IMG/VR virus record: IMGVR_UViG_2713896773_000008
Coordinates: 1 to 4,338 of that record
From: a virus
Taxonomy: Duplodnaviria; Heunggongvirae; Uroviricota; Caudoviricetes
Direction: 5' to 3' (one strand)
DNA length: 4,338 bases
Positions 1 through 4,338 of this stretch are shown piece by piece; the first letter of the stretch is position 1; every line of letters starts with the position of its first letter. The notes below the pieces were generated by a model, which had not been told where the DNA came from, did not search any database, and saw nothing but the letters and a program-made list of their open reading frames with translations. A program made the translations under genes and the position numbers.

Positions 1-414
1 CTGCATCAGGCTGTTTTTTGTTTCTTCCGCCTCCCGGATCCGGAACAGTTTTTCTGCTTCCGTATCCTTCACCCAGGCTGTGCCGTTCCACTTCTGAAAC
101 TCCCCTTCCGGGGATAACCAGGTGATATTTTCCGGTAGAGGTCCGAGTTCAGAAATAAATAACGAGTCGCCGGAAGCCACGTCATAGACGTTTTTTCCCC
201 GATGATCTTCAACGAGATGCCACGATGCCTCATCACTGTTGAAAACAGCCACGAAGCCTGCCGGAATATCTGGCGGTGCAATATAGGTACTGTTTGCTGG
301 CAGACCTGTATGAGGCGGAATATATGCGTCACCTTCACCAATAAATTCATTAGTTCCGGCCAGCAGATTATAAATTTTTATGGTCCGTGGTTGTTCACTC
401 ATTCTGAATGCCAT
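1..414 (-). CDS. tfa: Tail fiber assembly protein (Tfa chaperone), first 138 codons; 3' end runs off the window start
   Basis: Hand translation of the minus strand from the ATG at 414..412 gives [138 protein letters not shown] with no stop before position 1. I recognise this as near-identical to lambda/E. coli prophage Tfa from memory. GAGG at 423..426 sits 8 nt upstream of the ATG, and the ATG overlaps the stf stop (TAATG, 412..416). It is absent from the ORF track only because its stop codon lies outside the window. Confidence 0.9.
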
Positions 415-3275
415 TATGCAAGCCTCACAATGTAGTTAAATGCGATGTTTTTGACGGTGTTTTCCGCGTTACCAGCAGCGTTAACGGTGATGGTGTGTCC
501 ATGTGAGCCAATCGCAACGGAGTGCGTATGAGCACCAATACCGACAGTATGTGCATGTGCGCCTGCGCTTGCAGCAGTGCCGGACAGCGAGTGGGTATGA
601 GCACCATCTGATGATGTCTTCCCTGCATTACGAGTCTGGCCACTACCGCTTGTTGTGCTCATAATCCCCGCGCTTAGATTTGAAATCGCGGTATAACCAT
701 TAGGGAAAATGCTCGTGTTCGTGCCACCAAATGCACCGGAACTCTTGTGTTGGTGCGCACCGGCACTATTTGCGGTCCCGCTAATACTATGGGTATGCGC
801 CCCGGTGTTATTCGTGGATTTGGTTCCGTAATCAAACGACGATGTGGTTTTCGTCCCCAAATCCGTACTGGATGCGCTGGCGCTGTGGGTGTGCGATTTA
901 ATGCCGTCCTGTTCCTGAGACAATACGGCCCGACCACTGGCAGGTTTGCCCTTAATCGTCCAGCCACGCATATCAGGGATCACGCCTGACGGATAAGCGG
1001 CTGCAAGTTTCGGGTAAGCAGATTTGTCAAAAGTCTGCCCCTGCATCAGGGCATAACCAGACGGAACGGTATCTGATGGCCACGGGATTGGTGCGCCGAC
1101 TGGGTAGCTTTCTGGTGGAAGATTTTTCGAGGTATAAACTTCTGCCCAGCCTTCCTCAAAACCATAACCGTCTCTTGAAGAACGGTAGAACAGACCACCA
1201 TTTCTGTAATGCGCCTTCATCTGCAGGGTCCGGCAACTTCCGACTCCGGTATAGAAGTTAACCAGAATATAGCTGTCGCCAGAGCGGGTGACATTGTAAG
1301 CGCCTGATTCGGCATTCCAGGGAACGCCACCATCCGCATCGGCATATGTATCCGTTGCCCTTCTGGCAAAAGCAGCCACATGCGCGGCGGTTAAAGTAAT
1401 ATCTTTGGAACCATCAAATGGAACACCGGATATTTTTCTTGCAGTCTGGAGTTTTGTAGCAGTTGCAGCATTACCAGTGGTGTTCTGATTACCCGTAGTG
1501 TTTACACCTGGAAGGTTAATATTTGCAGAACCGTCGAAAACAACTCCACCGATAGATCTTGCCGTCTGCAATTTCGTGGCTGTACTTGCATTACCATTCA
1601 ATGAACCAGTTAATCCACCTGTAACAGACAACGGACCTGAAACTGTTCCTCCGGTTGTTGGCAGTGCTCCAATATCTGATGGTGTAGGTTTCTGATGTGA
1701 GCTATACATCGTATAAACAACACCATAGGTAACGCTGGAAGGCTTACTCGCTGAATATGTTGGCGAGGTATAAACAGAAACTGACGCATTTGCAGTACAA
1801 TCCCAATGGATATTTACACTCGTCGCATAATTGCCAATCTCAACGTAAATATCATATGTATCGCCGGATGTGTTGATCCAGGCGAAATTCGTTAATCCGA
1901 CGGCTGTACGCTTCCACAAAGCCCCGGTAATTCCTTTGGGGTTTCCATTGCCTGCTCGTAGAACCAGTTCTGAAATGCCTGCCTGATGTGGGGAACCGAC
2001 GTTGTAACCAGCGCCACCAATCAATGCGATGTAAACGATGGAACTCGCTTGTGGCATGGTAACCGTAGCCAGTTTGAACCACCCAGCCCCGCCAGAGAAA
2101 GACATCGTTACTGAATTTAAAGTACCAATATCTTTCGGCGTTAATGTTATATCCGCAGTCAGTGCTTTTCCGTTAACTTTTCGGTTAGATGGCACCCTGC
2201 TATTCGCATTGTCATTGGCTGCTTTAACTGCTTTTGGCGTTGCGGCCAGCGATTCACTGGTGCTATCAACAGCACTGCTAAGTTTCACAACACCTTTAGT
2301 TGTAAGGCTTGCGTCTTCCATCGCAACTGCACCGGCAATCTCTTCAGCACGATCAGCAGCAGCTTCCGCACGGGTCGCAGCGGATTCAGCAGTAGTTTTG
2401 CTCTGAGATGCCGCCGTCGCACTGCCAGCTGCCTCTGTCGCCTTCGTGGATGCTGTCGTGGCGCTGCCTTTCGCTGCTGATGCCTGTCTGCTCGCCTCAT
2501 CTTTTGAAGCAGACGCAGATGATGCCGATGACGCCGCCGAACTGGCGGACGATGCAGCTGCCATTTTTGAGGATTCTGCACTGGTTTCCGGGGCTTTCGC
2601 GTTCGTTTCGGATGTCTTCGCTGCGGATGCAGACCTCGCTGCTGCGCTGGCCTGTTCAGCGGCTTCGCCAGCCTTCGTTGTGGCTGTTGAAGCAGACGAT
2701 GCGGCGCTTTCTGCCGATTTTCCGGCGGCGGTGGCACTGGCTGAGGCCTGCCCGGCACTTGTTGACGCGGCACTGGCAGACGACGCAGCCGCTGTTTTTG
2801 AGCCTGCCGCAGCCGAGGCGCTCTGTCCCGCTGCCGTTTCAGAAGACCTGGCGTTTGTCTCAGACGTCTTTGCCGCCTTCGCGGAATTGCCTGCCGCCGT
2901 TGCCGAGGAAGCGGCACTACTGGCGCTTGATGATGCGTTCGTTTCTGATGATTTCGCTGCCTCTTTTGAGGCCGCCGCATCCCGGGCTGAGGTGGCTGCT
3001 TCTGACGCCTTCGTGGTCGCGGCGGATGCAGAAGTGGCTGCTGATTGTTGTGACGCTGCCGCATTCGTTTCTGACGTTTTCGCCGCACCGGCACTGGTAG
3101 CTGCCGCGCTTTTTGAGGACTCTGCAGCAGCAGCACTTTTTGCTGCTTCACGGGCCTTTGTCGATGCCGTTCCTGCGCTGGAAGACGCTGACTGAGCCGA
3201 CGACGCGGCCTGTCCGGCTGACGTGCTGGCGGCACGTGCTGAGCCTGCAGCATCGGTTAGCCGTCCTGACGGTAC
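414..3275 (-). CDS. stf: Side tail fiber protein (Stf), N-terminally truncated: 953-codon open frame with no start codon; first in-frame ATG at 2564 gives the 716-aa track ORF
   Basis: The minus frame is open from 3275 to the TAA at 414..416. It encodes an Ala/Ser-rich shaft with KTSETNA-type repeats, an ATPKAVK motif, two TATKLQTAR tail-fibre repeats and a His-rich C-terminus ending [18 protein letters not shown], all lambda Stf-like from memory. An in-frame TGA lies at 3276..3278. Codon-by-codon reading found no ATG, GTG or TTG in frame between 3275 and 2564. The sequence upstream of the ATG at 2564 (gcagaatcctcaaaaATG) has no Shine-Dalgarno. Confidence 0.85.
432..900 (-). other. His-rich HxH tip (receptor-binding needle) domain of Stf
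   Basis: Translation contains SHTHS, GAHTHS, GAHQH, GAHTHS, GAHAH, GAHTHS and GSHGHTITV motifs. Comparable HxH motifs coordinate iron in the T4 gp37 fibre tip (established knowledge); I did not model structure here. Confidence 0.7.
1400..1600 (-). repeat. Tandem duplication (120-bp period) encoding two phage tail-fibre repeat units within stf
   Basis: Plus-strand 1441..1478 (gcagtctggagttttgtagcagttgcagcattacc) and 1561..1596 (gccgtctgcaatttcgtggctgtacttgcattacc) are clearly related. They encode [23 protein letters not shown] and [23 protein letters not shown], exactly 40 residues apart. Confidence 0.7.
2599..3083 (-). repeat. Degenerate in-frame repeats in the Ala/Ser-rich Stf shaft (23-bp motif, four copies)
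   Basis: The motif GCrTTyGTyTCnGAyGnyTTyGC occurs on the plus strand at 2599, 2851, 2935 and 3061, with offsets of 252, 84 and 126 bp (all multiples of 3). On the minus strand each encodes A-K-(T/S)-S-E-T-N-A. Confidence 0.6.
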
Positions 3276-3438
3276 TCATCCCCGCGCCAATCTGACGGGC
3301 AATGGTTTCAATTGATGGCCAGCACACACCTTCGTCATTACTGAAATCAGCCAGGCGGGCCATAATTGCCACGCTGGATAATTTCATGCCTGATGCAGCG
3401 CAACCATCCCATACATAGCCGGTTAATTTAGTGCTCAT
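3256..3438 (-). pseudogene. 5' fragment (about 58 codons) of a winged-helix HTH_36-like gene, probably a replication-initiator type, cut off at a deletion junction
   Basis: ATG at 3438..3436 with GAGG at 3445..3448 (6-nt spacer). Translation [60 protein letters not shown] has the typical HTH_36 pattern. From about 3256 the same frame degenerates ([11 protein letters not shown]...) because it is reading the stf shaft out of frame; the track ORF 3148..3438 is that read-through. Confidence 0.5.
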
Positions 3439-3607
3439 GACCGACCTCTATTTCCCTGAATTTACGACGAAACTGTTCGAGCGGACTGAAGCATTCATGC
3501 TCATAGCCTTCGCGGAGGTAGATAACCCGTTGTGTTTCCGGCTCCCAACGAATGACTCTGACGGGCACTCCGTAGTGATCTTTGAACCAGCGGTTAACTT
3601 GTCGCAA
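3428..3607 (-). CDS. Alternative-frame small ORF (59 codons from TTG) with a strong Shine-Dalgarno; either a real small gene or the true 3' half of the frameshifted gene above
   Basis: Minus frame with first base at 3607: TTG at 3607..3605, preceded by AAGGAG (3621..3616) with an 8-nt spacer. Translation [59 protein letters not shown] looks strongly protein-like. Stop TAA at 3430..3428, overlapping the HTH ORF start. The frame is closed upstream by TGA at 3637..3635. Confidence 0.25.
3445..3448 (-). promoter_or_regulatory. Shine-Dalgarno (GAGG) for the HTH-fragment ORF
   Basis: Minus-strand aaatagaggtcggtcATG: GAGG lies 6 nt upstream of the ATG at 3438. Confidence 0.4.
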
Positions 3608-3786
3608 AGGACTGTCTCCTTCTGCCGGTTGAAATCACCCACAGCCCACTCAGCAAAGCTGTGGGTTACAATTTCCCTGTCACCTGGTACATTAACTGCA
3701 TAGCAATACTCCACCTTCGCTTTTCCACCCGGTACAGGAAGCGCAATCAGTTGCGAGCGACGGTAGTGTGTTGTTAAACTATTCAT
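3448..3786 (-). CDS. Hypothetical early-region protein (112-aa ORF); possibly frameshifted, see alternative frame 3428..3607
   Basis: ATG at 3786..3784 overlaps the upstream stop (ATGA, 3783..3786), suggesting translational coupling. The N-terminal half ([57 protein letters not shown]) looks protein-like; the C-terminal half ([45 protein letters not shown]) is Ser-rich and less convincing. Confidence 0.45.
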
Positions 3787-4338
3787 GCGTTAGTTTCTCC
3801 ACAGTCACGACACGCCACGGCGCCCGGAGCTGCACACTCGCGGGCGTCATTACTTTCTGAAATGCAAAAAATTTTGTAGACCAGTGCTGCATGCTCCTGC
3901 AGCTTCGAAATTGAGAGGTACAGCTCGTCGTTAATTGCTGTCTTCTCATGCGGTTCCACTACACCGTCTTCAATTGCTGAACGAATCTGTTTTGAATAAC
4001 TGCCGATCTGTTCAATGACCTCCAGCAGGCGTTGGTTGATATCGGCGTTGTCCACATCCTCGACATCAGGAAGAGACACAAAGACGCCATTTGCAGACTG
4101 CGCCACAGCGTCAGCAATGAAGTGAGTTCCACCAGCACGTTGCAAAATCATTGCCCATCCCAGCGGGAAAATCTGATCGCCATCGGCACGAAGGCGGTTA
4201 AATAATGCGTTCTCTGTTACATCCAGCCAGTCAGCAGCTTCAGCGTAACCCCCCGGCAACGCTGCGATAGTTTTTCTGACAGCTTTCACGTACCACTCAG
4301 GCTGTTTTTCTACTTTCCAGTGATGCTTACCCACGGTT
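3783..4338 (-). CDS. Prophage early regulatory protein, CII-like (resembles phage 186 CII / CP76 family); 5' end at or just beyond the window end
   Basis: Open minus frame from the window end to TGA at 3785..3783, protein-like throughout. The segment [38 protein letters not shown] resembles, from memory, 186 CII QTLRNKLNPEQPHQFTPPELWLLTDLTEDSTLVDGFLAQ. The C-terminus carries C-x9-C-x7-C-x2-C. The family assignment is my inference, not a search result. Confidence 0.55.

Follow-up and report, generated by a model that had tools for sequence, protein, structure and literature searches.

Several described elements share the early region of the locus analysed here, which is of the e14/PhiR29_1/SfII type. 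The intact phage PhiR29_1 (PV340556.1) carries cI, cro, ymfL, ymfM and the replication gene O (942 nt), followed further along the genome by J, lom, stf and tfa. In the e14 element of E. coli K-12, with the early genes ymfL-ymfM-ymfN/oweE, an O-like initiator gene is reduced to a short 5' part that runs into a late gene, and tail fibre and tfa genes are kept at the far end. Another kind of remnant, here called ML35-type, occupies the e14/icd site in E. coli ML35, NCTC9100 and many draft genomes. A wider comparison is offered by fixed-endpoint illegitimate recombination, which Michel and Ehrlich reportedly described in 1986 at the nick sites of the M13 and pC194 origins, and to which Int-promoted deletions at attP of phage lambda also belong. 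Chang and Cohen are said to have described the in-vivo joining of restriction-enzyme cuts in 1977.

We compared these systems with a 4,338-nucleotide stretch (the window) of the IMG/VR virus record IMGVR_UViG_2713896773_000008. The window shares its early genes with K-12 e14 at 97–99% DNA identity, and the 5' part of its initiator gene is likewise 97–99% identical to that of PhiR29_1 and of the Shigella phages SfII and SfIV, which are relatives for the early region. It also resembles K-12 e14 in that the same initiator gene breaks off early and continues as a late gene, with tail fibre and tfa genes at the far end. The two differ in how the cut gene continues. In K-12 e14, 234 nt of the initiator are left, and a 3-nt ACC overlap links them to a terminase gene; in the window 180 nt are left, and a TA dinucleotide with a 3-nt remnant of the tail-tip gene J links them to stf. 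Furthermore, the stf and tfa of the window are of lambda type, whereas K-12 e14 contains P2/Mu-like baseplate genes together with the Pin inversion system.

All genes of the window are encoded on the minus strand, in the order ymfL, DUF4222/ymfM, initiator remnant, stf remnant and tfa. The lambdoid order proposed in the preliminary description (CII-like, small gene, replication-type gene, stf, tfa) is thus borne out by Pfam matches and by colinearity with PhiR29_1. The ymfL gene (3783..4334, 183 aa), named as in E. coli genome annotation, encodes a CII-like regulator of the Phage_CP76 family (E = 1.5e-13). The DUF4222 gene (3428..3607, 59 aa, E = 8.6e-19), identified by Pfam and frame analysis and annotated in all related genomes, has a TTG start preceded by AAGGAG. 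It is overlapped in a different frame by a 112-aa ORF (3448..3786) that is annotated as YmfM in PhiR29_1.

The lambda-O-type initiator remnant (3260..3438) begins at the ATG at 3438, and its 60 codons are identical to the start of the 313-aa HTH_36 replication protein of intact prophages, whose homologues in phages are labelled 'DNA replication protein O'. The initiator also gives weak Pfam matches to DnaD_N and RP-C. The gene is broken within the recognition helix of its N-terminal winged helix-turn-helix domain: the HTH_36 match covers profile positions 7–45 of 55, with an E-value of 1.4e-7, against 4.3e-11 for the full-length protein. The initial reading, in which this ORF was recognisable for about 58 codons and then turned to nonsense, needs correction in its extent, which is 60 codons. 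Intact homologues contain 4–7 copies of a 15-bp iteron with the consensus CTGAC(C/G)C(G/A)TCAAAAT at about nt 295–400 of the gene, and this origin stretch is deleted from the window.

On the other side of the junction, the stf remnant (414..3254) corresponds to codons 146–1092 of a 1092-codon gene. Residues 7–953 of its reading frame align with residues 146–1092 of the 1092-aa Stf of PT109 at 98% identity, in agreement with the Stf-like minus frame noted earlier from about 3260, after the in-frame TGA at 3276..3278. Pfam identifies Collar (E = 4.9e-12) and Phage_fiber domains. The earliest in-frame start, the ATG at 2564, opens a 716-aa ORF (414–2564), which the annotation of ML35 calls 'phage tail protein' and for which 137 blocks of the assembly collection have an index entry. 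The N-terminal tail-attachment domain PF08400 (phage_tail_N), present in the N-terminal ORF of an intact relative (L007), is not found in the window, Stf residues 1–145 being deleted; the stf of the window is therefore a fragment and not a functional Stf member. Its shaft contains a single weak tandem array of 21 bp (2342–2391). The tfa gene for tail fibre assembly (1..414, ATG at 412–414) begins at the stf stop codon and is represented by its 5' part, 138 of 194 codons, whose translation is identical to the start of the 194-aa ML35 Tfa. The window thus ends within tfa on one side and just beyond ymfL on the other.

The genes flanking the join are both truncated relative to their full-length homologues, and the loss spans everything between initiator codon 60 and stf codon 146, a distance of 30,042 bp in PhiR29_1. 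Compared with its intact relatives, the window lacks the rest of O with the iterons, the nin-region genes, Q, the lysis, head and tail genes, J, lom and the N-terminus of stf. Without an initiator, origin iterons, lysis genes, head genes or tail genes, the remnant, judged by its gene content, can neither replicate nor form particles, and its stf-tfa part is a leftover. The earlier interpretation of the junction as the scar of an internal deletion in a cryptic prophage, with roughly 30 kb missing, is upheld. As such, the scar is ordinary prophage decay and adds one more case to a known class; what makes it interesting is the position at which the initiator gene was broken. We consider it likely, from the comparisons described below, that the window comes from a defective lambdoid prophage that suffered a loss in at least two steps, the second step belonging to a recurrent class of joins at TA dinucleotides.

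Base-level comparison places the end of the stf sequence at 3254, followed by GGT (3255–3257), TA (3258–3259) and the initiator gene from 3260. BLAST against 5426 E. coli genomes, which had been proposed as a means of placing both breakpoints, gives the same picture, with the match on the stf side ending at 3257–3259 and that on the early side starting at 3254–3258. The TA is compatible with both sides and is native to both parents. It corresponds to nt 180–181 of the initiator gene and marks the site of the last exchange: the base at −1 (T) is as in the J'/stf side and the base at +1 (G) as in the initiator gene. Reading from the early side, the junction produces a chimeric ORF of 96 codons (3148..3438, minus strand), consisting of 60 initiator codons and 36 nonsense codons read out of frame from stf DNA, with a stop at 3148–3150. 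The stf frame is +1 relative to the initiator frame and is closed upstream of the junction by the TGA at 3276..3278 (minus strand).

This offset between the frames is what a functional HTH-Stf fusion made by +1 ribosomal frameshifting would need, an alternative raised in the preliminary description that we regard as hardly conceivable. The HTH stops at profile position 45 of 55, inside the recognition helix, two DNA parents explain the sequence at the join, and a homologue with the initiator and stf halves contiguous in one frame was found in none of 50,697 phage records and none of 5426 E. coli genomes. The junction itself also had no carrier in either of these collections by BLAST and no occurrence in GTDB species genomes, JGI metagenomes or IMG/VR when searched as exact DNA patterns, and exact-protein look-up showed the 96-aa ORF to be absent from gene indexes.

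Although a net loss of about 30 kb stands, it was probably not a single event, as had been supposed; the comparisons indicate that the scar probably arose in at least two steps. The key evidence comes from the ML35-type loci, which share with the window the same truncated stf, the same tfa, the same breakpoint and the GGTTA that follows it (3255..3259 in the window, GGT plus the crossover TA). In these loci CATC is directly followed by GGTTATTACC, which runs on as J with 100% identity over 169 nt. Intact stf differs after CATC, continuing as AGTCGC, and the case for the first step depends on CATCGGTTA not being native to an stf with an intact N-terminus. Over 3259 nt, the stf side of the window differs from ML35 by one mismatch, and the match runs through GGTTA. 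Since GGTTA matches the first bases of the J fragment found next to this truncated stf in ML35 and in many further assemblies, the older J-to-stf deletion would have come first. In ML35-type loci, unlike the window, GGTTA runs on as a J fragment, which is separated from the early region by about 8 kb of mixed debris from prophages (ybcK, emrE, ren, P' and baseplate genes), and the break in the ML35 initiator gene is at nt 235. With 18 differences from the window in 1079 positions of the early side, ML35 serves as a model for the intermediate and is not the ancestor.

We therefore propose the following course of events. In the first step, common to many strains, an ordinary illegitimate deletion would have taken out the last part of J, the whole of lom and stf codons 1–145, leaving the junction of CATC with GGTTATTACC. 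In the second, specific to the window, the DNA would have been cut and rejoined at two TA dinucleotides, one lying 3 nt into the J remnant (CGGT-TA-TTACC) and the other at nt 180–181 of the initiator gene (GCGA-TA-GCCG), to give CGGT-TA-GCCG. As GGTTA and the stf breakpoint are shared with the widespread J'/stf' junction, the last step removed less DNA than the net loss, from an already decayed element; in an ML35-like arrangement it would span 8.4 kb. By comparison, a single deletion of about 30 kb leading straight from an intact prophage to the present junction, with GGT(TA) as filler or chance, appears improbable. The net loss does equal the O-to-stf interval of PhiR29_1, and short filler sequences occur at illegitimate joins. 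Such an event, however, would have to reproduce the stf breakpoint of the ML35-type J'/stf' junction to the base and continue by chance with five nucleotides of J, on an stf allele with one mismatch in 3259 nt to the ML35 lineage.

A second J junction reading GGTTA, in CM151387, was considered as a source and rejected. ML35 and CM151387 do not share one J breakpoint, as their sites are 282 nt apart in J (equivalent to 8672–8676 and 8950–8954 of L003), and deriving the window from a CM151387-type junction by a second deletion would require the ML35 stf breakpoint and the next 5 nt to recur by chance.

The second step may have deleted DNA from a single prophage or rearranged two prophages with each other, and the 4.3-kb window fits either. 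Related elements carry int at icd, thrW, argU or proL, and the early side of the window is 99.0–99.4% identical to thrW/argU prophages, versus 98.3% to the e14-site copy of ML35. The truncated stf block normally lies at the right end of the e14 site, and an inversion-type TA join exists (L049), so that an exchange between two prophages of one chromosome, for example at an inversion endpoint, has some evidence in its favour. We nevertheless find it unlikely: the order and orientation of the halves are those of a simple deletion, ML35 carries both halves 8.4 kb apart in the same orientation, and e14-site elements have mosaic early-region alleles in any case.

Comparison across prophages indicates that the initiator-side breakpoint is not arbitrary but recurrent. 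Three neighbouring TA sites in the initiator gene, termed h1, h2 and h3, carry recurrent joins. At h1 (nt 180–181) seven different partners meet the initiator at the same base, namely that of the window, J, tail gene L, a LexA-like gene, DUF968, RusA and an inverted lom; at h2 (nt 234–235) there are at least 14 partners, and both lists were drawn partly from scans directed at these sites. Together, h1 and h2 account for more than 20 different partners in independent prophages. A native TA is present at the join in all 18 partners with a known parent, and every informative join takes the base at −1 from the partner and the base at +1 from the initiator gene. Control scans of another TA 15 nt away and of a non-TA position in the same gene returned no junctions. 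Several of the fusions at TA sites are in frame, since the TA mostly spans codon boundaries and not as a result of selection. Among the titles and abstracts covered by a literature search, none appears to describe such a hot spot in an initiator gene.

The recurrence of h1 also bears on the possibility that the window is an assembly chimera of two loci, which we judge very improbable. Although the junction is unique in all collections searched, its initiator base is the one used in six independent junctions from other assemblies, and both parents supply a native TA as the rule requires. There is moreover no repeat for an assembler to collapse, since the two sides share only 2 nt.

The partner TA usually lies within a loose GG(N)TA(N)CC palindrome, and this motif is enriched among partner sites. 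One DUF968 site, CGGTATCCG, was joined to both h1 and h2, and the RusA site reads GGTTATCCGG. When scored with a leave-one-out weight matrix against the 1971 TA sites of PhiR29_1, 12 of 14 partner sites fall within the top quarter; the motif is loose, the other two ranking 927th and 1423rd. By this matrix h2 ranks 8th and h1 only 182nd, and a matrix built from partners only places h2 first, h3 second and h1 sixth among the 30 TA sites of the initiator gene. The h1 partners are closer to each other and to h2 (CGGT-TA-TCC) than to h1.

These features suggest a double-strand cut-and-rejoin with a 2-nt overlap, carried out by a putative sequence-preferring activity, either a nuclease together with a ligase or a recombinase-like enzyme. 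As a tentative hypothesis, we propose that a host or prophage nuclease leaving 2-nt TA ends, or a TA-core recombinase, acts on GG(N)TA(N)CC quasi-palindromes and has repeatedly stripped members of this widespread family of lambdoid phages of their initiator and the genes downstream of it. Such an activity would account for the window, for the e14-type elements of ML35, Ec-U11 and PT109 and for more than 20 other independent junctions, with the ymfN fusion of K-12 e14 as an imprecise product. Selection against in-situ prophage replication would then enrich survivors without an initiator. In K-12 e14, the ymfN junction lies 1 nt from h2 and the terminase parent has GGGGTTACCG 6 nt away, as would be expected if sites of this type were cut and the ends then processed.

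In a less likely scenario, no special enzyme is involved: breaks arise within the initiator gene or close to it, for instance when in-situ replication aborts, and are joined by microhomology at TA, and selection then retains survivors without the initiator. Loss of O function rescues cells from replicative killing by non-excisable lambda prophages, the K-12 e14 join has a 3-nt ACC microhomology, and the J'/stf' join of ML35 is not at a TA. A 2-nt homology is, however, very weak, given that 30 kb of DNA offers many longer repeats. Nor would microhomology lead one to expect that h1 partners resemble each other and h2 more than h1, that the motif extends onto the deleted side of partner sites, that one DUF968 site served both h1 and h2, that an inversion-type join is known, or that the control TA 15 nt away is without junctions.

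Known activities were considered as sources of the joins and set aside. Invertases of the Pin/Gin/Cin/Hin type use 26-bp crossover sites with the pattern ...AAACC-NN-GGTTT..., as in the K-12 e14 pix sites (TTCTCCCAAACC-AA-GGTTT), whereas the junction sites read GG(N)-TA-(N)CC. Adjacent deletion by an insertion sequence (IS) is not indicated, as the window contains no IS and no IS end lies at the junction; in strain H2 the partner is about 148 nt inside IS3 and not at its end. A gyrase-type 4-nt stagger would, by our own reasoning from 4-nt overhangs, need both flanking bases from one parent, but the joins show one from each. Resemblances to DnaA boxes, REP elements and integron cores were weak and were dropped.

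The joins can be compared with fixed-endpoint illegitimate recombination, in which, as here, a single endpoint is reused to the base and the variable partners have a short motif in common. They differ in having three neighbouring sites, a symmetric TA core with a 2-nt overlap and quasi-palindromic partners. Unlike the M13 and pC194 endpoints, the initiator sites lie 60–115 nt upstream of the origin iterons and not at a known nick site. If the proposal is correct, it would describe a specific route by which E. coli prophages get disabled. Should a defined activity make these joins, prophage inactivation in E. coli would be partly directed and sequence-specific, and not random erosion.

Every gene in the window lies on the minus strand. 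ymfL (3783–4334, 183 aa) matches the CII-like Pfam family Phage_CP76 (E = 1.5e-13), and an ORF starting at 3438 carries an HTH_36 profile match that stops at position 45 of 55. A long, Ala/Ser-rich side tail fibre (stf) frame, with a Collar domain and fibre repeats at its end, runs down to 414, and the first 138 codons of the tail fibre assembly gene tfa occupy 1–414. Pfam matches and homologue alignments bear out these gene calls of the preliminary description. The stf shaft (2285–3253) is Ala/Ser-rich and GC-rich, and several of its frames are open on both strands, giving ORFs of 322 aa (minus), 249 aa (plus) and 230 aa (plus). The antisense shaft ORF, which RefSeq lists in strain ML35 as hypothetical protein WP_033801682.1, is probably an annotation artefact of composition.

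Between ymfL and the HTH_36 ORF, two small minus-strand ORFs overlap in different frames within 3428–3786: a ymfM-like ORF (3448–3786, 112 aa), annotated in K-12 and in the intact relative PhiR29_1, and a DUF4222 ORF (3428–3607, 59 aa; E = 8.6e-19), annotated by RefSeq, with a TTG start and AAGGAG upstream. Both frames are open throughout 82 distinct homologues. Upstream of the overlap, substitutions by codon position (3/7/17) fit the ymfM frame; within it, the DUF4222 frame fits (11/3/17) and the ymfM frame does not (3/17/11). The filamentation phenotype published for ‘ymfM’ may need assigning to one of the two ORFs.

Alignment to full-length homologues showed that both genes meeting at the junction are partial. 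The HTH_36 ORF equals a 313-aa intact-prophage protein over 60 identical codons, slightly more than the 58 or so first estimated, and then switches, as described, to nonsense, 36 codons of it, stopping at 3148–3150. Phage records label the 5′ part of this gene replication protein O or primosomal protein, for example in SfII and SfIV (Shigella) and PhiR29_1 (Escherichia). In the neighbouring minus frame, the reported in-frame TGA is present at 3276–3278, followed by an stf-like reading whose residues 7–953 correspond to residues 146–1092 of the 1092-aa Stf of strain PT109 (98% identity). The remnant is devoid of the N-terminal tail-attachment domain, and its first start codon (ATG 2564) opens a 716-aa ORF annotated by RefSeq in ML35.

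Breakpoints were placed by comparison with E. coli genomes and PhiR29_1. The early order in PhiR29_1 is cI, cro, YmfL, YmfM, O, YfdN, a methyltransferase, a LexA-like gene, RusA, a hypothetical gene (a KilA-N domain protein in equivalent prophages) and a YdfU-family (DUF968) gene, followed by Q, lysis genes, Nu1 to J, Lom, Stf and Tfa. The window keeps this lambdoid order minus its middle, as had been proposed, and the estimated loss of about 30 kb is correct as a net figure because O nt 181 and Stf codon 146 lie 30,042 bp apart in PhiR29_1. The two partial genes, the gene order and this distance support the scar of a large internal deletion in a cryptic lambdoid prophage. Judged from its sequence, the window is a cryptic lambdoid prophage remnant, ordinary as a kind; e14 of E. 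coli K-12 is an element of the same kind.

Across 5426 complete E. coli genomes, the early side was matched from 3254–3258 onward in thousands and the stf side up to 3257–3259, and in none did the two halves adjoin as in the window. Only five genomes reach at least 80% window coverage, in two or three pieces over 5.2–6.9 kb of their own DNA, with the halves separated by other prophage DNA. No homologue with the HTH N-terminus and Stf shaft contiguous, an arrangement that would speak against a deletion, occurred in these 5426 genomes or in 50,697 phage records; the junction itself was likewise not found in those records, GTDB species genomes, JGI metagenomes, IMG/VR or the gene index. Instead of a simple deletion, the join could represent a rearrangement between two prophages.

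At base level, the window junction reads ...GCAGCATC GGT TA GCCGTCCTGACGG..., in which GGTTA (3255–3259) is foreign to stf. After CATC, intact stf goes on as AGTCGCATGG, and the intact initiator gene (the O-type HTH_36 gene) reads ...GTGCGA TA GCCGTCC. In ML35, NCTC9100 and many other assemblies, the same truncated stf ends at this CATC, followed by GGTTATTACCACTTCC; on the stf side, ML35 differs from the window by 1 mismatch in 3259 nt. The sequence after CATC in these loci is the tail-tip gene J, with 100% identity over 169 nt to PT109 J, and this J'|stf' junction has lost the last 245 nt of J, the whole of lom and stf codons 1–145. Because the window retains the J'|stf' junction and 3–5 nt of J before switching to the initiator gene at a TA common to both parents, its scar is, on this comparison of sequences, compound and two-step. 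The J'|stf' deletion would have come first, and a TA-to-TA join would then have linked a point 3 nt inside the J remnant to initiator nt 180–181 (h1). Applied in silico to ML35, this second step removed 8,418 bp and reproduced the window with 19 mismatches; 18 of these fall on the early side, and ML35 is therefore a model of the intermediate, not the ancestor. The ML35 e14 site (NZ_CP025747.1, 1950–1963 kb; loci L001/L004) is a patchwork with at least four internal junctions, running from e14-type early genes through baseplate genes, DLP12-type P'-ren-emrE-ybcK, P22 AR-C, two J fragments and truncated stf-tfa to a McrBC-like system broken up by an IS3-family element.

The h1 breakpoint recurs. 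Its base, |TAGCCGTYCTGACGG, is joined to J at another position in CM151387, to tail gene L in CP053785 (annotated there as one continuous ORF), to the LexA-like gene, DUF968 and RusA in IMG/VR contigs, and, in locus L049, to an inverted lom fragment adjoining inverted head genes, an inversion-type product. The L049 fragment (12916–13066, about 150 nt) is joined at the h1 TA through an overlap of 6 nt, GCGATA, and before it lie portal and prohead-protease genes whose orientation is likewise opposite to that of the early region. A second TA, h2 (nt 234–235, |TACCCTGGCG), has at least 14 different partners, among them those in ML35 (baseplate genes), Ec-U11 (lom), strain H2 (an IS3 interior) and 11 IMG/VR contigs, and the PT109 initiator is broken at a third, nt 209–210. 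Ec-U11 (L002 8111) and PT109 (L003 9798) are e14-site elements that neighbour the same Avs2 defence gene; their flanks are 100% identical, yet their initiators break at nt 235 and nt 210 and are joined to lom and J, respectively. Neither is ancestral to the other; the two breaks are independent and, apparently, arose recently within a single lineage. As controls, nt 166, which is a TA, and a position near nt 196, which is not, were scanned in the same collection; these scans yielded a SNP but no junctions. Partners locatable in PhiR29_1 cluster at 9.3–14.8 kb (nin region to lysis genes) and 33.4–36.5 kb (J, lom), with none mapped to the head and tail-shaft genes at 17–30 kb; tail gene L of CP053785 would fall, by approximate placing, at 30.7–31.4 kb. 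Either selection or biased sampling in viral-contig collections could explain the gap.

A native TA lies exactly at the join in 18 of 18 partners with parental sequence found. At every informative join, the partner supplies the base preceding TA and the initiator gene the base following it, which places the exchange inside the dinucleotide. Half-sites outward from TA favour (N)CCGG, and whole sites resemble GG(N)TA(N)CC, as in CCGGT-TA-TCCGG in RusA. With a weight matrix made from partner sites only, the three initiator sites come 1st, 2nd and 6th of the gene's 30 TA sites. Under leave-one-out matrices, the top quarter of the 1971 PhiR29_1 TA sites takes in 12 of the 14 partner sites, and h2 ranks 8th and h1 only 182nd. 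The main rival, enzyme-free microhomology joining followed by selection, seems to us less likely than not: h1 partners resemble each other and h2 more than h1 and carry the motif on the deleted side also, which disfavours simple pairwise microhomology. The DUF968 site is joined with both h1 and h2. The ymfN junction of K-12 e14 lies 1 nt from h2 with a 3-nt ACC overlap, and in its terminase parent GGGGTTACCG lies six bases away; this arrangement would be consistent with cutting at sites of this type and subsequent trimming of the ends.

We infer that a putative sequence-preferring activity makes double-strand cuts and rejoins the ends with a 2-nt overlap. Several known candidates were rejected. 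Pin invertase sites (AAACC-AA-GGTTT) are unlike the junction sites, an IS end is at 0 junctions, and under a gyrase-type 4-nt stagger one parent should supply both flanking bases, contrary to observation. The affected elements do not share one phage integrase (icd, thrW, argU and proL sites). In lambda, selection acts against in-situ replication of a trapped prophage, favouring initiator loss; by analogy, such selection would then enrich initiator-less cells. The intact initiator coding sequence contains 15-bp iterons at about nt 295–400 in variable copy number, as lambda O also has iterons within the gene. With the consensus CTGAC(C/G)C(G/A)TCAAAAT, these iterons encode a repetitive SDPSKSDASK stretch, and copy number varies between phages (L014, about 8780–8885; also L039, L040, L061, L071, L072, L078, L085, L106 and L144). 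In K-12 strains lacking e14, the match of the CPS-53 yfdO fragment to the intact initiator begins only at about nt 234, which is where the e14 initiator copy stops.

Among the papers returned by literature searches, none appeared from its title and abstract to describe a recurrent TA breakpoint class. The interest of the window scar is that its last step belongs to this class.
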